DNA of 64,000 nucleotides. Origin: Dehalococcoidia bacterium (GTDB lineage Bacteria; Chloroflexota; Dehalococcoidia; Lucifugimonadales; UBA3495). The position numbers were made by a program, and so were the translations under genes. Shown here piece after piece: positions 49,298 through 60,364 of the stretch; positions within the stretch are counted from its first letter, which is position 1, and every line of letters starts with the position of its first letter. Location: NCBI GenBank assembly GCA_965204805.1, contig OZ242013.1, positions 2,541,232 to 2,605,231 on the forward strand, given 5' to 3'. The notes below the pieces were generated by a model, which saw only the letters and a program-made list of their open reading frames with translations, had not been told where the DNA came from and searched no databases.

Positions 49298-50215
49298 ATG
49301 CAGAGATATCTAGTCCGCCGGTTGGTCCTGGCCATCGTCACTCTGTTGGCTGTCTCGCTCATCATTTTCATACTGAGCCGGTCTGCGGGTGATCCGGTCT
49401 CTCTGATGCTGGACGAATACTCCACGCAGGAAGACATAGACCGGATGATGGCCAAGCTGGGCACCGACAAGCCCTACTATCAACAGTACTTCATATTCCT
49501 GCGGGACGCTTTCCGCGGGGATTTCGGGATGTCCATCAAGGAAGGGCGCCCGGTTACCGAAGTCATCCTGGAACGCACCCCCGCCACGTTGTACCTGGGA
49601 GTGACCGCCTTCGTCGTCTCATTGCTGGTGGGCATTCCGCTGGGAATACTGTCGTCAATCAAGCGAGGGAGCCTGATAGACCAGGCTGGAAAAATTGTCG
49701 CGCTGCTGGGCCAGTCGGCGCCGCCCTTCTGGCTCGGGATAATGCTGATTATCTTCTTTGCCGTGTCCATAGAATTGTTCCCGCCCTACGGACGGGACGA
49801 CTGGAACAGCATCGTACTGCCGGCCGTCACCCTGGGCTGGTATTACGCTGCGGCCAACCTGCGGCTGGTGCGCTCGGCAATGCTGGACGTTCTGGATTCC
49901 GAGTACATCAAGCTGGCCCGGGCCAAGGGCGTGCCCTACTGGGGCATCGTGATGCGCCATGCCTTCCGCAACGCCCTGATCCCGCCCCTGACCTTCGCGG
50001 GCGTCACCCTGGGCGCGCTGGTCACCGGCTCGCTGGTGGTGGAAACGGTGTTCGCGTGGCCCGGCCTGGGTCATCTGGCGATAAGCGCGCTCTACGCCTT
50101 CGACTATCCGCTGCTGCAAGGGGTGGTGGTAGTCTTCACGCTACTCTACGTCCTGGTCGCCTTCGCAGTGGACGTGCTTTACGCCTACATAGACCCCCGT
50201 ATCCGGTACGCATAG
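49298..50215 (+). CDS. ABC transporter permease (DppB/OppB-like)
   Basis: Starts MQRYLVRRL.., with a typical BPD_transp_1 core. Confidence 0.85.
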   Translation: MQRYLVRRLVLAIVTLLAVSLIIFILSRSAGDPVSLMLDEYSTQEDIDRMMAKLGTDKPYYQQYFIFLRDAFRGDFGMSIKEGRPVTEVILERTPATLYLGVTAFVVSLLVGIPLGILSSIKRGSLIDQAGKIVALLGQSAPPFWLGIMLIIFFAVSIELFPPYGRDDWNSIVLPAVTLGWYYAAANLRLVRSAMLDVLDSEYIKLARAKGVPYWGIVMRHAFRNALIPPLTFAGVTLGALVTGSLVVETVFAWPGLGHLAISALYAFDYPLLQGVVVVFTLLYVLVAFAVDVLYAYIDPRIRYA

Positions 50216-50232
50216 GCAGGTAAGAGGGCATT

Positions 50233-51300
50233 ATGGCCGTCAACGCAACAACCGATGTTCTGACACCTGCCGGCAGCGGCTTTGGAGCGCGGCTGACCGG
50301 GGTCTATCGCGCCTTCCGGCGCTGGCCGGTGATACCCGTGCTTCTGCTAGGGCTGGTCGTTTTCGCCGGCATCGCCGCGCCCTGGATTTCCCCTCACGAC
50401 CCCGACAAGCAGTCGCTGCCCGAGCGAAAGTTGCCTCCCTTCTGGTACGAGGCGAAAACGGAAATCGCCACCAAGACGGTGGTGCAGCGGGTTCTGCCCG
50501 GACAGGACGACCAGATTTCCCTAGCGGACGCTCAGGCAGTAAACCCCGACGTCCAGATCGGCGATTCCATCGAAGTCGAGGACGTGACCCGTACGGGCGG
50601 CAGCAGCAAGTACTGGCTGGGCACCGACCAGTTGGGGCGGGACATACTCTCCCGCATAATCTACGGCGCCCGCATTTCCCTGCTGGCCGCCGCTGTGACC
50701 CTGGGCGTCGGCGGTTCCATCGGCGTGCTGCTGGGGCTGGTGGCAGGCTGGTACGGTGGGGTGGTCGACGAGGCTATCATGCGCTTCGTGGACATACTGC
50801 TGGCCATCCCCCTGGTGTTGATCGCCCTGGCGATGGTGGCCACTTTGGGACAATCGCTGACCATCATCGTGGCGGTGCTTACGATATTCATCTGGCCGCG
50901 CTTCGCCCGCCAGTTGCGGGGCGAGGTGCTGCAACTGAAGAATATGGACTTCGTGGCGCTGGCCAGGGTGGCCGGGGCCTCCGTCCCCAGGATTCTGTTC
51001 GTTCACATATTCCCGGGGACGATAAACACCCTGATAGTGGTGGCTACCCTACAGGTGGGCATCGTGATTCTGCTGGAAGCCACGCTCTCGTTCCTGGGCG
51101 CGGGCGTGCCGCCGCCAACGGCCACCTGGGGCGGCATGGTGTCGGACGGACGGAATCACCTGGCCGGGGGGTTCGAGACCGGCTCATGGTGGATTTCCAC
51201 CTTCCCCGGTATCGCCATCGTGCTGACCGTTATGTCGCTGAACCTCTTCGGCGACTGGCTGCGCGACAAGCTCGACCCACGGCTGCGGCAGATAGAGTAG
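50233..51300 (+). CDS. ABC transporter permease (DppC/OppC-like)
   Basis: GTDQLGRDILSRIIYGARISL motif. Confidence 0.85.
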   Translation: MAVNATTDVLTPAGSGFGARLTGVYRAFRRWPVIPVLLLGLVVFAGIAAPWISPHDPDKQSLPERKLPPFWYEAKTEIATKTVVQRVLPGQDDQISLADAQAVNPDVQIGDSIEVEDVTRTGGSSKYWLGTDQLGRDILSRIIYGARISLLAAAVTLGVGGSIGVLLGLVAGWYGGVVDEAIMRFVDILLAIPLVLIALAMVATLGQSLTIIVAVLTIFIWPRFARQLRGEVLQLKNMDFVALARVAGASVPRILFVHIFPGTINTLIVVATLQVGIVILLEATLSFLGAGVPPPTATWGGMVSDGRNHLAGGFETGSWWISTFPGIAIVLTVMSLNLFGDWLRDKLDPRLRQIE

Positions 51301-51379
51301 GCCCTGTCCGTGAAGGGGCGCACGGCTGTGCGCCCCTACTGCTATAATGGGACAACATACACAAAGGCCAAAGAGCATT

Positions 51380-52369
51380 ATGACAACCGAAGTAGCAACC
51401 GAGCGCGAAGTAGTCCTGAAGGTCGATGACCTGCGGACCTACTTCACGACCCGATGGGGAACGGTCAAGGCAGTGGACGGCATCAGCTTCGACCTGCGCC
51501 GGGGTGAGACGCTGGGCATCGTCGGCGAGTCCGGCTCCGGCAAGTCGGTGACCATGCTGTCGCTGATGCGCCTCATCCCCATGCCGCCGGGCCGCATCGT
51601 GTCGGGGAGCATCGAGCTGGACGGCGAAGACCTGCTGAAGCTGTCCGAAACCGAGATGAACCGGGTCCGGGGCAGCAAGATAGCACTCATCATCCAGGAC
51701 CCCATGACCTCGCTGAACCCGGTGTTCACCATTGGCAACCAGGTATCGGAAGCCATCAAGATTCACCAGGACATTCCGAAGCGGTCGGTGATGGAGCAGG
51801 CCCTCTCGGTGCTGCGGAAGGTGAACATCCCAGCCGCCGAATCGCGGATGCGCGACTACCCCCACCAGATGAGCGGCGGAATGCGGCAGCGCGTGGTGGG
51901 CGCCATCGGCATCTCCTGCCAGCCGCAGGTGCTCATCGCCGACGAACCGACCACCTCGCTGGATGTCACCATCCAGGCGCAGTACCTGGCCCTGCTGAAA
52001 GAATTGCAGCGGGATTCCAACGTGGCGCTCATCTTCATCACCCACGACTTCGGCATCGTCGCCAAGATGTGCGACCGGGTGGCGGTGATGTATGCCGGGC
52101 GCATCGTTGAGCAGGGCAGCGTCCGCGACATTTTCAACCGCCCGTCGCACCCCTACACCGAGGCGCTGCTGGCCTCGGTGCCCAAGATGGAAGAGGATGT
52201 GGACCGGCTGTACTCCATAGAAGGCCAGCCGCCCACGCTCCACGACCTGCCTCCCGGATGCCCCTTCGCCCCTCGCTGTCAATACGTGATGGACCAGTGC
52301 CGCGAGGAATACCCCACCCGCGTAACGGTAGGCGAAGGCCACGACGCTTCATGCTGGCGGTTAAGCTGA
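51380..52369 (+). CDS. ABC transporter ATP-binding protein (DppD/OppD-like)
   Basis: Walker A GESGSGKS, signature SGGMRQR and Walker B LIADEPT. The start is uncertain (51347 or 51380). Confidence 0.85.
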
Positions 52370-52370
52370 T

Positions 52371-53384
52371 ATGACGACTGCAATCGCTCCAGATAACACA
52401 TCCTCCTCAGCCAACGGCAGCGGGGCGCTGCTGGAAGCCGTGGGGCTGAAAAAGCACTTCCCCGTGACCAAGGGCCTGCTCATCAGCAAGACCACCGGCC
52501 ACATCAAGGCGGTGGACGGCGTTTCCTTCGAGCTGCGCCCCGGCGAGACGCTGGGCATCGTGGGCGAGTCGGGCTGCGGCAAAAGCACCACCGCCAAGAT
52601 GATGCTGATGCTGGAAGATCCTACGGAAGGCTCCATCCGCTTCGAGGGTAAAGAGATACGGGACGCCGACCCGGAGACGCGGCGGGAATACCGCCGCTCG
52701 GTGCAGGCAGTGTTCCAGGACCCGTGGAGTTCCCTGAACCCGCGGATGCGGGTGAGGGACCTCATCGCCGAGCCGATGGTCATCAACTGGGACATCAGCC
52801 GGGGACAGATCCAGGAACGGGTTCTCAAGCTGCTCACCGACGTGGGCCTGAGCGCATATCACGCCAACCTGTATCCCCACGAGTTCTCCGGCGGACAGCG
52901 CCAGCGCCTGGCGATTGCCCGCGCCCTGGCCCTCAACCCCAAGGTCATCGTGCTGGACGAGCCGGTTTCCGCGCTGGACGTGTCCATCCGCGCCCAGATA
53001 ATGAACCTGCTGAAAGACCTGCAGTCGGAGTACAACGTCAGCTATATGCTCATCGCCCACCACCTGGCGACGGTGCGCTATATGTGCACCTGGGTGGCGG
53101 TGATGTACCTGGGCCGCATAGTCGAGCTGTCACCGGTGAAGGACCTGTTCGAGAATCCTTCGCACCCGTACACCAAGGCGCTGATGTCGGCGGCCCTGCC
53201 GTCACACCCCGATACAGTGCAGGAAGAGATGATCCTGACCGGCGAGGTGCCCTCGCCGCTGAACCCGCCGGAGGGCTGCCACTTCCACACCCGCTGTCCC
53301 TTCGTCATGGACCACTGCGGCGTGCAGGAGCCGCAGGTGAAGGAAGTTTCCCCCGGCCACACCGTCGCCTGCCACCTGTTCTAA
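52371..53384 (+). CDS. ABC transporter ATP-binding protein (DppF/OppF-like)
   Basis: [16 protein letters not shown] and [10 protein letters not shown] motifs. Confidence 0.85.
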
Positions 53385-53863
53385 ATTGTTGGCGTCGATT
53401 CCATTGTCGTCAGTCCAATTTGGCAGGATGCGTTCATTTGAATACAAGAAGAATGCCCCTCCTCGCTGCTGACGGGAGTATGTAGCGGCTTAAACCGGAC
53501 CTGCGCTTAGCTTGAGAAGACGCCTGGGGGAACTCCCGCAGTGAAACCTCCCGGCTATCGGCCCGTCACAACGCCAAGAAGGTCCTCTGGTGTCCGGCTC
53601 GGATTCCACAGGCTGTCCACCATCCTCCTTACCACGGTGTCCAAGTCTTCGGTAATGCCCAGGATGGCCCCGCTGAGGCGGGCCAGACAGTTCCGCTTCT
53701 TCCGCTCTCTCCGGTCCAATCGCTGCCCCATTGGCCCGGCAAAACTCCGGTGGCCGCCACTTCACCGGCCACGGCATTCCGCGCCGTCAAGGCCATTCCG
53801 ACGCAATTTCCTAAACGTTACAAGAAGTCATATAATTATTACTAAAATTCACACTTATGTTAC

Positions 53864-56049
53864 ATGACTGGTGATATAGTGGACTTGTCCGGCAGTGAGG
53901 CTGGAGCCGGGCTTGGCTGCTGCCCTAGCCCTGGCTCAAACCTGGCCTGGGGAGTTGCCCGCTATGCGCCCTTTTTCACCCCCCCCCCCCCGACTTTCGC
54001 TGGGATTCTTCTTCTTGCGCTGATTCTTGCCGGATTGCTGGCAGCCTGCGGCTCGGATGCGCCGCAGGCCACAGAACAGCCCACTGCTGTCGCGCCTCCG
54101 GTGACCGCCGCCACATCACCGTCGCCGGTGCCAACGGCAACACCCACGCCGACGCCCCGGCCTGCGGCAACGTCCGCGCCTGAACCAACCGCCGCCCCCG
54201 CTCCTACACCGTCGCCCACTCCCGCGCCAACCCCTACCCCTACGCCAACGGCCACTCCAGCTCCTACGGCTACCCCTGCTCCGACACTCACGCCGACACC
54301 TTCACCAACAGCTACCCCTGCTCCGACGCCAACCGCCATGCCCACGCCCACGCAGACACCAGTGCCGACACCTTCACCGACAACTACTCCGGCCCCGACG
54401 CCAACGGCCACGCCTGCGCCAACGACCACACCCACGCCCACGCAGACACCGGCGCCGACATCCACCCATATCCCCAAGGAGCAGCGCGATGCGAACGATT
54501 ACATCGTCTGGAAAATCGGTAGTGGGGTTAGCCCCGGGGCGGAGGCCGAGGCCAGGGCCGTCGTCTATGCCATGCATGACTTTGCCGTCAGCAACGGTCT
54601 GCCCCGAATCGATGGCCCTATAACCATCTTCCTCTACCACAACCTCGATGCCTTGGAGGCTGAATTTGAGGCATCTACCGGGCTTCAGTCTGAGAATTGG
54701 TTCTGGCCGGGTTTTAGGGATGGGAGGACTCCCATAACCTCCAGAAGAGATTTCATTGCAGTGAACACGTCGGCAAGCTATTACCAGGGTGTTTCGCGAG
54801 ATGAACGGGCAAGGCTATTGGCTGAAGGACTGTTTGATGCTCTGCGCCGCGCGTTGACCGGAATATGGGAGGGCGCTCCATGGGACGCTGTAAGCCGTGA
54901 GGGTCCTGTGTGGTTGTGGCATGGCGCCAGCCGTTTTTTTGCTTGGCAGTCGACCAAGACGCTGGGGCAGGAGTCATGCGACCTGTCCAGGAACCGCTTT
55001 GCCACATTACCGCAATCAGCAGACGAGACACTCAGCGAGTTGGAAACCTTGGCGGGCTTCGATTATCAGGGGGGCACTCCGCGTACGGGTTTCTCGCGGT
55101 GGAGTTGCTTTCGGAGCGGGCAGGCAAGGAGTCCATATTCGCCTATTTTGCATCGCTCAAGACCGGAGGCACCTGGCAGGATGCGTTCGAGCGGGCTTTC
55201 GGAATGACCGTGGATGAGTTCTACCAACTGTTCGAGGAGCGCCGTACGGCCGGATTTCGCCAGCCACGTTGCCCGACGCTGCCACCGCTGGTCACCTTGC
55301 CGGGTTCTCCGGAGTATGTGAAATGGGAGATTGGTTCCGGCGTCCCGCAGGAGTATGTCCATGACTCGGTCGAGGGTGTCCGGCTGATGCACGAATATGC
55401 CGAGTCTCTGGGTATGCCTGAGATAGAAACGGAGTTCACTGCCCACCTGTACTACGACCAGATTGAGCTGATAGCCGCCTACCAAGCCGCAACAGGAGGC
55501 GATGGGAATTGGGTTCCTGAGGGATCTAACGCTGTAGCTTACGGCTCTGGCTTTTTCACGAATACTCTGCGTTGGGAAGAGCGAAAGACATCCTCCGACG
55601 ATCGGAAGAAGATTTCCGCGCATGAGTTGTTTCATGTCTTCCAGTCTCACGTGTCGTTGAATCGCTCACGAGAGGCGACGTGGCTGTCGGAAGGTACCGC
55701 AGAGTTTCTTGCTTTCAGGGCTTTGGACGCGGTAGATGTGGTCGACTATGCTGTAGAACGAAGTTCGCGTAGGGGATTCGTAGAGATCGCGCGACGTGTA
55801 GAAAGACCTCTGAAAGAGATGGAAGAAGGGCATAAAGCCATCCAGTATGACTATTCCCTACTGGCGGCGGAACTCTTGGCGTCACGGACCGGAGAAAAAT
55901 CGCTCTTCCGATTTCTAGAGATCCAGAGTACTAGTGGGACCTGGCAGGAGGCGTTCCAAACCGCCTTCGGGATGACCGTAGAGGAGTTCTACGAGTTGTT
56001 CGAGGAACACCGCGCCGCGGGATTCCCCGAGGTGGAGATACCCAAGTGA
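53864..56049 (+). pseudogene. two-module metalloprotease-like lipoprotein, split by a frameshift at a G6 run (55069-55074)
   Basis: Lipobox LLAACGS and a long PT-rich linker. Module A has a degenerate AEGLFD and module B an intact HELFH. Both modules end ...W(Q)(D/E)AF..AFGMTV(D/E)EFY.LFEE(R/H)R(T/A)AGF. Confidence 0.55.
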
Positions 56050-56065
56050 AGCCGCGCCAGTCCGT

Positions 56066-56117
56066 AAGGAAGTCTCTCCAGGCCACACCGTCGCCTGCCA
56101 TCTGTTCTAAGTTCTTA
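56066..56117 (+). pseudogene. orphan duplicate of the dppF-like gene 3' end
   Basis: Encodes [14 protein letters not shown], identical to the end of 52371..53384. The coding differences are synonymous. Confidence 0.7.
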
Positions 56118-56133
56118 ACACACAGCGCGACAG

Positions 56134-56757
56134 TCAACTCCACTGCGGGGGCTTGGCGAGGACGTATCCGTCGGGCTTGACTACCCTATCGGGCAGCAGG
56201 CTGGCGCTAATCCGGCGTCGGCCTATGACAAACGACGCGTTTACCGCCTGGTTGAGACGTATGGAAACACGATTCGGCGGGAAGGCCGCAATAACTCGTT
56301 TTTCCTGGTATCGGCGGCGGATGGCCTCTATCGGCCCGGCCAAGTCACTGTCGCCTGAGATAACAATCGCAGTGTCAAAGGCATCGTCCTGAGCGTCGCA
56401 CATCAGTTCAACGGCAATGTTTACGTCGGTCATTTTTTCTTCGTAAGTTTCCTGTGCCACGCCACATTGTCGGCAGAATACGCGCTTGGGCAGGAAATAC
56501 CCATAATGAATATACAAGCCAGGGAGAGTTTCCAGCGCTTCCAAGTACGTCTGTTGCCGCTCTGATTGCTCGGGGTCATAGGCCAGCCGTATAACCCTGG
56601 CGGTAAAATATCTGACCGTCATCAATTGTTGCCCGTATTGGAGCAGGTTCTCAGCCAGACGGCGCAAGTCCAGACAGTAGTATCGCCGCCAGCCCTTGGA
56701 CTTGAGGCCGTAGTAAAGGTTAAACCCGTCAACGTATACCGATACGCGCTGCATCAT
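56134..56757 (-). CDS. NYN-domain (LabA/DUF88-like) predicted RNase
   Basis: RVSVYVDGFNLYYG...IVISGDSDL motifs. Confidence 0.75.
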   Translation of the reverse strand: MMQRVSVYVDGFNLYYGLKSKGWRRYYCLDLRRLAENLLQYGQQLMTVRYFTARVIRLAYDPEQSERQQTYLEALETLPGLYIHYGYFLPKRVFCRQCGVAQETYEEKMTDVNIAVELMCDAQDDAFDTAIVISGDSDLAGPIEAIRRRYQEKRVIAAFPPNRVSIRLNQAVNASFVIGRRRISASLLPDRVVKPDGYVLAKPPQWS

Positions 56758-56785
56758 TGTTATCTCTGCAAGCGAAAAATTTGGA

Positions 56786-56814
56786 TTGACATGAAGCAAC
56801 GATTTAGTTATTAT
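56786..56814 (+). promoter_or_regulatory. sigma70-like promoter TTGACA-N17-TATTAT
   Basis: Perfect -35 with 17-nt spacing and a 5/6 -10. Confidence 0.4.
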
Positions 56815-56820
56815 ATCTGT

Positions 56821-56883
56821 ACCCCCCTAGCGATGGCATCGCTAGGCTGACGCTCCCTCTGCGAGGGGGCGTTTCTCTTTTTT
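56821..56883 (+). ncRNA. candidate ~65-nt sRNA or leader: two hairpins plus U-tract
   Basis: CCTAGCGAT-GGC-ATCGCTAGG, then ACGCTCCCTC-TGC-GAGGGGGCGT followed by TTCTCTTTTTT. Confidence 0.3.
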
Positions 56884-56938
56884 ACCTGTTGGAACCCGAA
56901 CCTTGAAGCCGCCGCCGCCCCGGTGCTAGAATCTGGCA

Positions 56939-57754
56939 ATGCCGACGCAGGCACAGACGAAGAAGCAGCGCCGCAGCCCAACCATGTCGCCGGTCCGCAT
57001 CGCCCAGGCCGTCGAGCTGATGGCGCAGGAGTACGGGCCCTTCGAGGCGGAGCGGCGGCTGCCCCCAACCGACGAGATGGTGTTCACCATCCTGTCGCAG
57101 CATACGTCGGACATCAATTCGGGCCGCGCCTACAACCGGCTGATGGAGCGGTTCGGAACGCTGGAAGCGGTGGCCAGGGGCGACGTGGCCGAAATCGAAG
57201 AGGCCATCGCGCCCGGGGGACTGGCCAAGGTCAAGGCCCCCCGAATCAAGGAAGTCCTGGGGAAGGTGCTGGAACTAAACGGCGGGTCGCTGGACCTGTC
57301 CTTCCTGCGGGAGATGCCGCTGGCCGAGGCGAAGGCGTGGCTGCGGCAACTGCCGGGCATCGGCCCCAAGTCCACCGGCATCGTCCTCAACTTCTCCCTG
57401 GGTATGCCAGCCATGGCCATAGACACCCACATCTTCCGGGTGTGTCAGCGGCTCCGCGCCATAGACGCCAGGACCAACGCCGACAAGGCCCACGACGTTA
57501 TGGAAGCCAAGGTGCCGCCCGAGGAAGTGTTCAACTTCCACGTGGCCTTCATCAACCACGGGCGACGGGTCTGCAAGGCGCAGCGTCCCCTCTGCGAGTC
57601 GTGCGTTGTGGGCGGGATGTGCCCGTCGCGCAAGAAAATGATGACTAAATCCGCCGCCACGGAAAACGGAGCCAAGTCCGCCCGCGCGTCCAGAAGCGCC
57701 CAGAGTGGGCCCGGCCCGATGCCCCATATTCCCCCGCAGACGGGTTCAGAATAA
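56939..57754 (+). CDS. nth: endonuclease III-family HhH-GPD base-excision glycosylase
   Basis: HhH (LPGIGPKST), a catalytic-region D and FeS cluster CKAQRPLCESCVVGGMC. The start is uncertain (56939 or 56984). Confidence 0.8.
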   Translation: MPTQAQTKKQRRSPTMSPVRIAQAVELMAQEYGPFEAERRLPPTDEMVFTILSQHTSDINSGRAYNRLMERFGTLEAVARGDVAEIEEAIAPGGLAKVKAPRIKEVLGKVLELNGGSLDLSFLREMPLAEAKAWLRQLPGIGPKSTGIVLNFSLGMPAMAIDTHIFRVCQRLRAIDARTNADKAHDVMEAKVPPEEVFNFHVAFINHGRRVCKAQRPLCESCVVGGMCPSRKKMMTKSAATENGAKSARASRSAQSGPGPMPHIPPQTGSE

Positions 57755-57803
57755 ATAGGATATTCGTAAAGAAAGCAGGACTGCGACAAGGAGGGCCAGG
57801 AAA

Positions 57804-58835
57804 GTGAAGGTTGGAATCATCAATGTCACCGGGTACTCAGGCTCAGAGTTGGCCCGCATCCTGCGTCGCCATCCAGAAGTGGAAATCGCGTCGGTCACTG
57901 GCCGGAGCGCCGCCGGGCAGAAGCTGGGTGAGGTGTTCCCTCACCTGGAAAGCCTGGACCTCACCATCGAGCCGGAACTGAGCGGTAGCCTGGACCTGGT
58001 CTTCTCGGCCCTGCCGCACAAGGCGAGCGCCGAAGCCTGCTTCCCGGTGCTGGACCAGGGCGTCAAGGTAGTGGACATCAGCGCCGACTTCCGCCTGAAG
58101 CGCGCCGACGAATACGAGGAATGGTACGGGGTGGAACACCAGAAGCCGTCGCTGCTGGAGGAGGCGGTGTACGGGCTGACCGAGCTGCACCGCGACGAGA
58201 TTCGCGCCGCCCGGCTGGTGGCCAACCCCGGCTGCTACCCCACCAGCGCCATCCTGGCCCTCGCCCCGGCGGTGGCAGCGGGAGTCATCAGCCCCGACAT
58301 CATCGTGAGCAGCCTGTCCGGCGTGTCGGGCGGCGGGCGCAGCCTCACTATGACCAACCATTTCTCGGAGGTCAATGAGAACGCCTTCGCCTACGCAGTC
58401 AACGGACACCGGCACCTGCCTGAGATTACGCAGGAACTGAATCCCTTGACCGGACAGCAGTTGAGGGTGACTTTCCAGGTGCATCTGATACCAATGACGA
58501 GGGGAATCTTCAGCTCCTGCTACGCTCCGCTGGCCAACCCCGACGCTTGGGTGGGCGACGAGGGGAAGCAGCGCCTGGTGGACATCTACCGCGACTACTA
58601 CGCCGACCACCCCTTCGTGAAGGTGGTGTCGGCCCCGCCGCAGACCAAGCAGACGCTGGGCAACAATATGTGCCTGCTGCACCCGGTCATTGACAGCCGC
58701 ACCGGCCGCCTGACCGTGTTCAGCGTGCTGGACAACCTGGTGAAGGGCGCGGCGGGCCAGGCAGTGCAGAACATGAACCTGATGGCCGGTTTCCCCGAAG
58801 ACACGTCGCTGGACGAACTGGCGGTATACCCGTAG
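57804..58835 (+). CDS. argC: N-acetyl-gamma-glutamyl-phosphate reductase
   Basis: Starts GTG. N-terminus is GIINVTGYSGSEL.R.L..HP, and the NPGCYPTS active-site motif is present. Confidence 0.9.
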   Translation: MKVGIINVTGYSGSELARILRRHPEVEIASVTGRSAAGQKLGEVFPHLESLDLTIEPELSGSLDLVFSALPHKASAEACFPVLDQGVKVVDISADFRLKRADEYEEWYGVEHQKPSLLEEAVYGLTELHRDEIRAARLVANPGCYPTSAILALAPAVAAGVISPDIIVSSLSGVSGGGRSLTMTNHFSEVNENAFAYAVNGHRHLPEITQELNPLTGQQLRVTFQVHLIPMTRGIFSSCYAPLANPDAWVGDEGKQRLVDIYRDYYADHPFVKVVSAPPQTKQTLGNNMCLLHPVIDSRTGRLTVFSVLDNLVKGAAGQAVQNMNLMAGFPEDTSLDELAVYP

Positions 58836-58876
58836 CATACGACGGCCGGGTGTGCTAGACTGAAAGGGTACTGAGT

Positions 58877-58954
58877 GCCCCGGTCGTCTAGCCAGGTCAG
58901 GATGCCACCCTTTCAAGGTGGAGATCAGGGGATCGAAGCCCCTCCGGGGTACCA
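58877..58954 (+). tRNA. tRNA-Glu: tRNA-Glu (anticodon UUC), CCA encoded
   Basis: Cloverleaf folded by eye. Anticodon arm is CCACC-CTTTCAA-GGTGG and T-arm is GGGGATCGAAGCCCC. Close to canonical tRNA-Glu. Confidence 0.9.
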
Positions 58955-58967
58955 ACCTCGAAATGCG

Positions 58968-59002
58968 AATCCACGCCACCGCAAGGGGCGTGGATTGCTT
59001 TT
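58968..59002 (+). terminator. rho-independent terminator after tRNA-Glu
   Basis: AATCCACGCC-N9-GGCGTGGATT followed by GCTTTT. Confidence 0.6.
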
Positions 59003-59082
59003 AGAACCTTCCTCGTTTTGCCTCAGATATTCGTTTCGTTCCCGCCACATATCCATGCATTAGTGTTCGGCTTCGATAGCCA

Positions 59083-59400
59083 ATGGATTACGAAGTCCGC
59101 TTGTCGGAACCGGCAATTGCCATGCTCTTGAAAATCCCAGATGCGGCTACCCGGCGACTGGTTTCGGAACGTATCAACCTGCTTGCCAGAGACCCGGAAA
59201 GGCAAGGCGGATTTCTCAAAGGAGGGCTATCCAGATACCGGAAGTGCCGAGCCGCAGGGAGACGCTACCGAATTCTTTATCGAATAGATGAAACCACTTC
59301 AACGGTGATTGTGACGGCAATAGGGGCCAGGAATCCGGGAGAACCGGATGACATATACAGAATTGCCAATCAACTGTTACAGGAAGGCTTGTTGGAATAG
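59083..59400 (+). CDS. RelE/ParE-family toxin
   Basis: ...RYRKCRAAGRRYRILYRIDETTSTVIVTAIGARN... signature. Confidence 0.8.
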   Translation: MDYEVRLSEPAIAMLLKIPDAATRRLVSERINLLARDPERQGGFLKGGLSRYRKCRAAGRRYRILYRIDETTSTVIVTAIGARNPGEPDDIYRIANQLLQEGLLE

Positions 59401-59414
59401 CCCAAGGCTGAGGT

Positions 59415-59744
59415 GTGGCAATGTCCTCTTCAATCTACACGTTAACCAGTGCAATGGCGCTTAAAGCAGCCAAAAACCGGTTCTCTCAACTGCCTCGCCG
59501 CGTGAACGATTCCCAGACGGTAATCCCCATCACCCGTCAAGGACGCCCGGTTATGGCGCTTATGTCTTGGGAAATGTTCGAGTCCCTAGTGGATACCATC
59601 GAAATACTGTCCGACCCGGAGCTTATGTCCCAGATAAACGAAAGCGAAAAGGCCATTGCCGAAGGCAGAACAGTTCCGTTCAGCGAGGTTCTGGCGGAGC
59701 TGGGCATCAACCTCGACCGCACCCCCTTAGAAAGTGGCGAGTAA
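59415..59744 (+). CDS. Phd/YefM-family antitoxin (encoded after the toxin)
   Basis: ...VIPITRQGRPVMALMSWEMFESLVDTIEILSDPELM.... Confidence 0.75.
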   Translation: MAMSSSIYTLTSAMALKAAKNRFSQLPRRVNDSQTVIPITRQGRPVMALMSWEMFESLVDTIEILSDPELMSQINESEKAIAEGRTVPFSEVLAELGINLDRTPLESGE

Positions 59745-59869
59745 CCGGTAAATTTGTTCCAGAAACAGGACATTGGCTTGGTCAATGGCCTGTTTTCATT
59801 CGTATATGGACTGCATCTGAAATTTTTGGACATCATGGTAATCAATGTCCAACTCGGTGTCGTGACAAT

Positions 59870-60364
59870 ATGATCGCCACCTGGCAGCAGTTCGCGGCCC
59901 AATCCCCGGAGCTGGCGGCGCTGGGCGAGACGCAGTTCGCCCGCACCGGGCTGGCGCTGGTGGGGACGCTGCGGCGCGACGGCTGGCCGCGCATCTCGCC
60001 GGTGGAGCCGTTCATCGTGGACGGCCTGCTCTACCTGGGGATGATGTGGCGGTCGGTGAAGGCCCTTGACCTGCTGCGCGACCCGCGCTGCGTGGTGCAC
60101 AGCACAGTATCCGACCGCGACGGGACGGAGGGCGAGTTCAAGGTCTACGGGCGGGCCGTTGAGGTGACTGACCTTGAGGAGCGTCGGCGGTTCGGCGATG
60201 CCGTGTACGCCGCCATCGGCTTCCGGCCCGAAGAGCCGGAGTTCCACTGCTTCGCCATCGCCATCGAAAGCGTCGCCTTCTCCCAACTCCGCGATGGCGA
60301 GTTTCACCGCCAAGTCTGGAAGGCGAATGATAGACGCAAAGACGCAGAGACGCAAAGAAAATAG
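59870..60364 (+). CDS. pyridoxamine 5'-phosphate oxidase-like (split beta-barrel, possibly F420/FMN-binding) protein
   Basis: ...GTLRRDGWPRISPVEPFIVDGLLYLGMM..S.K..DL..DPR pattern. Confidence 0.65.
   Translation: MIATWQQFAAQSPELAALGETQFARTGLALVGTLRRDGWPRISPVEPFIVDGLLYLGMMWRSVKALDLLRDPRCVVHSTVSDRDGTEGEFKVYGRAVEVTDLEERRRFGDAVYAAIGFRPEEPEFHCFAIAIESVAFSQLRDGEFHRQVWKANDRRKDAETQRK

Follow-up and report, generated by a model that had tools for sequence, protein, structure and literature searches.

A candidate poly-C contingency switch in a twice-frameshifted metallopeptidase-like lipoprotein gene of a Dehalococcoidia bacterium

Introduction

Contingency genes with intragenic poly-G or poly-C tracts have been described in Neisseria meningitidis, Haemophilus and Campylobacter, including the poly-G tracts of hmbR and hpuAB (PMC3786947), a set of 115 predicted genes of this kind (PMC5084427) and the G/C tracts of Campylobacter (PMC8355987). 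Related observations have been reported for the homopolymeric tracts of Bordetella pertussis (PMC1891110) and for homopolymer phase variation in the Mycobacterium tuberculosis complex (PMC10334774), along with the glpK 7C tract (bioRxiv 10.1101/717272). Here, we analyze a candidate locus of this type in a 64,000-nucleotide stretch of DNA (hereafter, the window) from a Dehalococcoidia bacterium (Chloroflexota), where a gene for a two-module, metallopeptidase-like lipoprotein contains a run of 13 C (C13) shortly after its putative start codon and a run of 6 G (G6) within its first module.

As in the Neisseria, Haemophilus and Campylobacter systems, a long G/C tract near the 5' end of an open reading frame (ORF) for a surface protein or a methyltransferase sets the reading frame, and such tracts are over-represented and variable in length between strains. 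Unlike those systems, the host here is not a pathogen but an uncultured member of the Dehalococcoidia, known as a metagenome-assembled genome (MAG) and probably an invertebrate symbiont; the tracts are longer (12-26 nt) and have a conserved 3' GAC(T) flank; and switching is something that we infer. The similarity to B. pertussis and M. tuberculosis lies in GC-rich genomes where coding or promoter poly-C/G runs vary in length, knocking genes out or repairing them, and where OFF states that resemble pseudogenes are common; the tracts of those species, however, are mostly 7-15 nt long, lack a shared flank and have been validated by population sequencing, whereas those described here are known from assemblies. 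Poly-G/C switches also occur as promoter spacers, as in porA and opc of N. meningitidis and the tpr promoters of Treponema pallidum. A multi-copy element in the same genus as the window (genome G039; G and L denote genome and locus labels, G000 being the window's own genome) resembles that type, whereas the window's tract lies past the start codon and not between promoter boxes. A full-text literature search recovered no paper in which homopolymeric tracts and phase variation were connected with Chloroflexi or sponge symbionts. Homopolymer contingency loci as such are well known (PMC5084427, PMC1891110, PMC8355987, PMC10334774), and what is new here is the lineage, the protein family and the unexplained conserved flank.

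Reading frames of the locus

As assembled, the gene cannot make its protein because C13 puts the start codon out of frame and G6 splits the first module (module A). Our preferred reading, with a probability of roughly one half, is that C13 is a slipped-strand contingency switch, now OFF, and that G6 is an ordinary, fixed frameshift, the gene being either locked off or freshly decayed. The first-pass annotation of this DNA, made from the sequence alone, had left the choice between switching, decay and sequencing error open; on the evidence given below, C13 favours a switch, and G6 favours a real inactivating mutation. The switch is preferred for C13 because it is one of a class of long tracts, variable in length, that occur throughout the genus at the 5' ends of genes for exported proteins and methyltransferases.

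Direct reading of the + strand places C13 at 53979-53991, G6 at 55069-55074, and GGGGAG (53949-53954), a Shine-Dalgarno (SD) motif, 9 nt ahead of an ATG at 53964, all in agreement with the first-pass annotation. The tract starts 15 nt past this ATG, and the number of C determines whether the codons that follow are in frame with it: with C13, translation from the ATG stops after 19 codons, whereas the gain of one C or the loss of two (14 or 11 C) brings the ATG into frame with the signal peptide. At the assembled tract length, no short, positively charged n-region start is in frame with the hydrophobic h-region; the only ATG in frame with the signal peptide, at 53864, has no SD and would add a 45-residue extension.

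Farther downstream, ORFs 53864..55207 and 54910..56049 of the ORF list are both on the + strand, in frames one base apart. That they are halves of one gene, as had been proposed, is borne out by the alignment of module A, read across G6, with the second module (module B; 267 columns, 33% identity, E = 7e-36 in blastp) and by homologues that hold both modules in a single ORF. Adding one G at G6 yields one frame of 728 codons from 53864, or of 695 aa from 53964, and recalculation gave the same frame arithmetic at both runs as the first-pass annotation. The placement of the frame change at G6 itself stands only in part: G6 is the sole run of at least 4 bases in the stretch concerned, but the break can be placed only within ~55060-55085. 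The sequence 3' of G6 lies in the -1 frame. The features of the locus, all on the + strand, are as follows.

53340..53390, +: direct repeat copy 1, comprising the last ~46 nt of oppF and its stop codon; left border of the insert
53391..53948, +: non-coding left part of the insert; possible promoter, AT-rich stretch with TGATATAGT at 53873-53881
53949..53966, +: SD GGGGAG, 9-nt spacer and ATG, read directly from the sequence
53979..53994, +: C13 and the conserved GAC, candidate slipped-strand translational switch (from the sequence and the genus-wide class)
53995..54049, +: h-region of the signal peptide and lipobox L-A-A-C, Cys codon at 54047-54049 (from the translation)
54050..54466, +: Pro/Thr/Ala-rich stalk of ~138 aa (from the translation; repeat family D1)
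54467..55278, +: module A, predicted catalytically dead gluzincin-like module, split by the frame change at G6 (blastp against module B)
55069..55074, +: G6 run, reading-frame change; homologues read through this point in one frame
55279..56049, +: module B with intact HEXXH-X18-E; HELFH at 55621-55635, Glu at 55690-55692, TGA stop at 56047-56049
56066..56116, +: direct repeat copy 2, remnant of the 3' end of oppF; right border of the insert

Under the preferred reading, gain or loss of C during replication would bring the 53964 ATG into register with the export signal or take it out again, so that the switch would act on translation, with the assembled state being OFF. A sigma-70 scan found no canonical promoter on the + strand, and the promoter near 53873-53881 is putative. 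C13 as a sigma-70 promoter spacer was considered and rejected, there being no flanking -35/-10 pair on either strand. The only match in an Rfam scan of 50000-60000 was a tRNA at 58877, and no known RNA family was found around the tract.

Poly-C tracts in the genome and the genus

The 5.06-Mb genome contains only eight homopolymers of at least 10 nt, all of them poly-C/G runs of 12-14 nt. The counts of C/G runs fall from 94/75 for 7-mers to 5/1 for 8-mers and 3/0 for 9-mers, with none at 10-11 nt and then eight at 12-14 nt. All eight of these long C-runs (8/8) are followed by GAC, mostly in the form GACTTT or GACTCT, compared to 1-3% of the 9,566 runs of 5-9 nt. The seven tracts other than that of the window are located at C1:995762, 1485371, 1492273, 1494543, 4046868, 4578518 and 4617010.

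Across the genus, tracts of at least 11 C followed by GAC were detected in 31 of 40 genomes, and in the clean, closed genomes, the base 3' of tracts of at least 12 C is almost always G. At the loci whose surroundings were read, the tracts range from C11 to C26, with the C on the coding strand of the next gene, and lie either a few codons past an SD and ATG or in the leader. The genes concerned encode lipoproteins, signal-peptide proteins and membrane proteins (L016, L026, L028, L033, L035, L036, L038, L039, L101). Among these are lipoproteins with leucine-rich repeat (LRR) heads on a Pro/Thr-rich (PT) stalk (L016, C17; L101, C19), and L101 has the arrangement AAGGAG-N8-ATG, 8 codons, C19, GAC and a lipoprotein signal resembling that of the window. 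Giant repeat proteins with signal peptides follow other tracts (own-genome 1485371, C14; L026, C19; L035, L036, L038, L039), as do polytopic membrane proteins (L014 and four paralogues in G033). Tracts also occur in DNA methyltransferase genes, namely L015 (G034), with C11 eight codons past the ATG and off frame by one, and L023 (G041), with C18 in mid-gene; both are candidate phase-variable methyltransferases. In pathogens, genes of these classes are known to be phase-variable. Statements on ON and OFF states rest on hand-checked tracts only; automatic scoring of all tracts was abandoned as too noisy, owing to chance GTG starts and short loci.

Tract length varies between orthologous loci, which have C12, C15 and C26 upstream of related methyltransferase genes and C13/C14 vs. 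C19 before a giant surface-protein gene. Paralogues carry C14, C17, C19 and C20, or C18, C18 and C24, and within two paralogue sets (C14, C17, C20 and C18, C18, C24) the lengths differ by multiples of 3, the pattern predicted for a translated tract. One family member, from another species, has a tract inside its first module that is C10 in one sample and C9 in two others, the sequences being otherwise 99.6-99.7% identical. The cumulative GC skew of the chromosome, examined with a view to replication-strand bias of the tracts, was too noisy to place the origin and terminus.

These observations bear directly on a simpler explanation, which we consider rather unlikely but the most serious of the alternatives, namely, that this is a plain pseudogene, an acquired and decaying gene in which the two frameshifts are ordinary mutations that happened to strike runs, C13 playing no part in any switching. 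It would accommodate the two independent lesions, the frame-broken state of several family members in relatives and the lack of the tract in the closest homologues. However, a 13-nt run is far outside the run-length distribution of this genome, the GAC signature is common to all seven other long runs, the SD-ATG-Cn-GAC-signal-peptide design recurs in other species and, apart from the two frame lesions, the 2.1-kb gene has accumulated no stop codons or other damage.

The flanks of the tracts are not explained by slippage. The 5' side is biased towards YTA/TCAG, and the codon phase of the 3' GAC varies among tracts, so that the constraint on GAC operates at the DNA level and not at the protein level. 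An IS4-like insertion sequence (IS) element (DDE_Tnp_1, ~1.33 kb; L002/L003 11559-12887) has the terminal inverted repeat (TIR) CTGACAGGGGTAGGT and the 11-bp target duplication GGGGGAATAAG; elsewhere, its ends adjoin poly-C tracts, or two ends meet with only G7 (L036) or G13 (L038) between them. Conceivably, Cn-GAC could be a by-product of mobile DNA, either a target or junction product of the IS4-like element or a gene-conversion cassette, and not a switch maintained by selection. Of 37 tracts, ~10 adjoin one of the ends of this element, on either side, junctions of the form right inverted repeat (IRR)-G13/G7-left inverted repeat (IRL) occur, an 11-bp duplication starting with G5 flanks one IS copy, a TIR-like motif is present at 53469-53483 of the window, and GAC acts at the DNA level. 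We nevertheless deem this origin improbable, given that most tracts have no IS nearby, that the paralogue sets preserve tract length modulo 3, as would translated tracts under selection, and that, in the alignment with a paralogue, CTCTCCCGGTTCC stands opposite C13GACTTTC, which hints at an origin of the window's tract in situ, from sequence rich in C. Even if correct, such an origin would not exclude switching.

Several further arrangements of such tracts were observed. In the window's own genome, three cassette copies lie within 10 kb (L044; G000 C1:1485371, 1492273, 1494543), each consisting of an ATG-MFDxxxNSxSKVGRLLRAA start, C13-14, GACTTTCACCCTCTGAAAAC..GGAGGCCCGG and a signal peptide; downstream of copy 1 is a repeat protein of 1,986 aa, downstream of copies 2 and 3 are only broken or short ORFs, and the orthologue of this cassette in L026 (C19) is in frame. 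A conserved ~400-nt leader is present in three copies upstream of signal-peptide genes (L046-L048; G000 C1:4578518, 4617010, 4596627), and the copies differ at one point, reading CAG-C12-GACTC, CAG-C14-GACCT and CAG-C7 without GAC. In G039, a multi-copy element (L062-L081) has a perfect G-strand promoter, TTGACA-GGC-G12-18-TATAAT, in which poly-G is the promoter spacer; a conserved hairpin leader follows, and there are at least 12 copies with different tract lengths. In L063 (G039:C1:345820-ff, region 368180-368490), the tract region of this element, GATTGTACTA-C13-GCCTGTCAAGG, is bracketed by a pair of CRISPR-like repeats, GGTCTATCCCCGCA(C/T)GTGCGGGGGAGAC, and so resembles a spacer, perhaps one directed against the genome itself or against a mobile element.

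Assembly accuracy and the G6 frameshift

As an internal control of assembly accuracy, we compared all within-genome repeat copies that were no shorter than 800 bp and no less than 97% identical. The 325 kb of alignments contained 582 substitutions and 51 indels, only 3 of the latter in homopolymers, and none of the 83 pairwise comparisons of G/C 6-7-mers differed in length. A mis-call of G6 is therefore unlikely, the control showing no noise at such runs. MutS and MutL are intact, and slippage at a 6-mer is rare under working mismatch repair. The clean control and the intact repair genes together indicate that G6 is most likely a real, ordinary frameshift. Under the preferred reading, G6 would be too short for a useful switching rate in a mismatch-repair-proficient cell, and its frameshift would have become fixed while the gene was off.

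The same control makes it distinctly unlikely, in our estimate, that the true gene is intact and one or both runs were mis-called. The errors left in long-read consensus sequences are mostly homopolymer indels, a 13-mer is hard to call, and one base per site would restore the frame; however, both sites would need to be wrong in an assembly with 3 homopolymer indels in 325 kb and no differences among the 83 comparisons of 6-7-mers.

Recoding, in which RNA-polymerase slippage on C13 and a -1 ribosomal frameshift on CAG GGG GGC would together produce the protein from the sequence as it stands, has, we believe, very little chance of being correct. Read in the upstream frame, G GGG GGC formally conforms to X XXY YYZ, and long homopolymers are known to cause transcriptional slippage in other bacteria. 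However, re-pairing of the tRNA from GGC to GGG is poor, no stimulatory structure was noticed, although no search aimed at one was made, and neither a G run nor a frameshift is present at the junction between modules A and B in the homologues or in the genome's own paralogue, all of which encode it in one frame; a programmed -1 site conserved in homologues was thus not found, which argues against programmed frameshifting at G6.

Several observations weigh against C13 being a switch. The tract is missing at the corresponding position from the closest protease homologues and from a paralogue whose signal peptide is nearly identical. The first-pass annotation had regarded the absence of homopolymers from homologues as an argument against its proposal, and this absence holds for the closest protease homologues (L001 and paralogue 2402400) but not for homologous export cassettes of two other species, L016 (C17) and L101 (C19). 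Furthermore, a HiFi-type consensus may err by one base in a 13-mer, such that C13 could be C14. The contigs with C9 and C10 have coverages from 2x to 31x, so that their difference could partly reflect consensus error, and neither length is in frame. Nor would simple slippage predict the invariant 3' GAC or the frequent occurrence of IS ends next to tracts. Finally, given the second, non-switchable frameshift, the locus is not a working switch now.

The encoded protein and its family

The export signal reported by the first-pass annotation was recovered: a match to the lipobox pattern [LVI][ASTVI][GAS]C follows the hydrophobic h-region, with GS after the Cys encoded at 54047-54049. Lipid anchoring is plausible because the genome encodes both Lgt (PF01790, 145 bits) and LspA (PF01252, 113 bits), in open frames. 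The Pro/Thr linker after the lipobox, earlier put at ~110 aa, is in fact ~138 aa long.

Module B has an intact HELFH zinc motif (55621-55635), as had been stated, and its third zinc ligand is the Glu of WLSEGTAEF, 19 residues past the second His (HEXXH-X18-E); this segment aligns with WLNEG of the M1 aminopeptidase 3cia. In a 17-sequence alignment, the Glu of HEXXH is invariant and the remaining motif positions are largely conserved. At the corresponding place, module A has AEGLFD (54821-54838), and WLWHGASRF replaces the Glu ligand; neither HEXXH nor this ligand is present, and the homologues are all degenerate there as well (ARSLFD, AAGIFK and similar). The earlier view of module A as a degenerate pseudo-protease is upheld in that it appears, from these sequences, to be a conserved pseudo-enzyme.

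Profile searches were less informative. Module A had no match in Pfam; module B matched Peptidase_MA_2 with 26.7 bits, below the 32.4 cut-off, and its C-terminal three-helix piece, a headpiece-like subdomain, matched VHP and BTRD1, in all cases below threshold. Peptidase_M9 was not matched at E <= 0.1 in Pfam, the likeness to M9 collagenases being at the fold level only. Flagellinolysin was a weak NCBIfam match (22 bits against a cut-off of 205), no Pfam or NCBIfam model scored over threshold, and a sequence search of the Protein Data Bank (PDB) found nothing significant, aligning only the HEXXH-X18-E stretch of M1 aminopeptidases.

The first-pass annotation had proposed a structural comparison with known HExxH folds. 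An AlphaFold model of the unmodified 281-residue ORF, which covers module B and the end of module A, was built on 17 homologues (pLDDT 88, pTM 0.85). All top Foldseek matches of this model were M9, M1, M30 and M61 peptidase domains (E from 6e-5, TM ~0.5), in line with a thermolysin-like catalytic fold. Clostridial M9 collagenase (PDB 7zoc, 4ar8), M1 aminopeptidases (6a8z, 3mdj) and M30 lugdulysin (7bb8) have in common with module B the zinc site and the thermolysin-like catalytic fold, at only 13-16% identity and TM ~0.5; in its HEXXH-X18-E spacing, module B agrees with M1. Features peculiar to this Dehalococcoidia family are the tandem dead and live modules, the headpiece-like C-terminal subdomain, the PT stalk and the lipid anchor. 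Because of the confident model, the peptidase-domain structural neighbours and the HEXXH-X18-E motif, module B is classed as a gluzincin-type metallopeptidase domain of an uncharacterised family, with predicted activity. For the intact two-module paralogue, the model (pLDDT 85, pTM 0.74) contains two copies of the same fold. When ON, the gene would produce a lipid-anchored, stalked predicted metallopeptidase with a dead partner module.

Four further family members are encoded in the same genome. The intact paralogue (C1:1030018-1032195) is a lipoprotein with a PT stalk, a degenerate module A and module B in one ORF, whereas paralogue 2402400, which has the near-identical signal peptide, starts with TTG and lacks a poly-C tract. 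A database search yielded 110 homologues, all from metagenome assemblies, many of which are arrays of 2-5 modules or LRR-domain fusions, with the A-B unit in one frame. In one family member (L002-L004, 5290-5430), the repeats coding for the Pro/Thr linker differ by several indels between strains, and the length of the stalk itself is variable. An exact look-up of the window's gene elsewhere returned only the 281-aa call from 55204 on its own contig, and neither a scan of metagenome contigs for the tract-flank pattern nor an exact look-up of the methyltransferase adjoining another tract produced a match.

Genomic context

Upstream of the gene is a complete operon for a peptide ABC transporter (SBP_bac_5, two permeases and two ATPases). 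In genomes of the same genus, oppF is followed by nth (endonuclease III), either directly or with a NYN gene in between, and there is no protease gene at this place. A 51-nt direct repeat of 88% identity (53340-53390 and 56066-56116; family D4) brackets the gene; it was aligned with the 3' ends of oppF in relatives, and copy 2 is just past the protease stop codon. The G+C content between the repeats is 53-59%, compared to 62-65% in the flanks. The absence in sister genomes, the repeat of the oppF end and the lower G+C content indicate that the gene is a recent 2.7-kb acquisition at the 3' end of oppF, the last gene of the operon.

No integrase is present within the insert. A mobile element behind the insert was sought and discarded as an explanation, the left non-coding part having no copy in the genome and only one weak match of 109 nt at 69%. 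An exact 15-mer of the C-terminus of module A (TGGCAGGATGCGTTC) is found at 53421-53435, 30 nt past the oppF stop, and CTGACGGGAGTATGT at 53469-53483 matches the TIR of the IS4-like element at 12 of 15 positions; both may be scars of the arrival of the segment. The gene between the insert and nth (56134-56799, - strand; G+C ~50-54%) encodes a NYN domain and occurs at this place in just one examined sister genome (G008). From fold and neighbourhood, the adjacent peptide-uptake operon suggests a role in extracellular protein degradation.

Discussion

Beyond the individual locus, the tracts lend themselves to a broader and decidedly speculative proposal, which we consider doubtful: Cn-GAC(T) might be a sequence-specified hypermutable cassette, installed or maintained by a dedicated GAC-linked mechanism (the IS4-like element or gene conversion of export cassettes), that provides a stochastic ON/OFF repertoire of surface proteins, membrane proteins and DNA methyltransferases in a non-pathogenic, probably sponge-associated symbiont. 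The unit shared under this proposal could be an export cassette of the form SD-ATG-Cn-GAC-signal peptide-lipobox-PT stalk.

Homopolymer phase variation is a textbook phenomenon for a few host-adapted pathogens but has received very little attention in environmental or symbiotic Chloroflexota. The protein family described here, in which multiple gluzincin and pseudo-gluzincin modules form heads on a Pro/Thr stalk, is itself uncharacterised. For genome annotation, the locus implies that 'frameshifted' genes in high-quality long-read MAGs are not necessarily errors. If the tracts indeed switch, these symbionts would stochastically diversify both their surface, including proteases, LRR proteins and giant adhesin-like proteins, and their methylomes, with a bearing on persistence in the host and evasion of phages.

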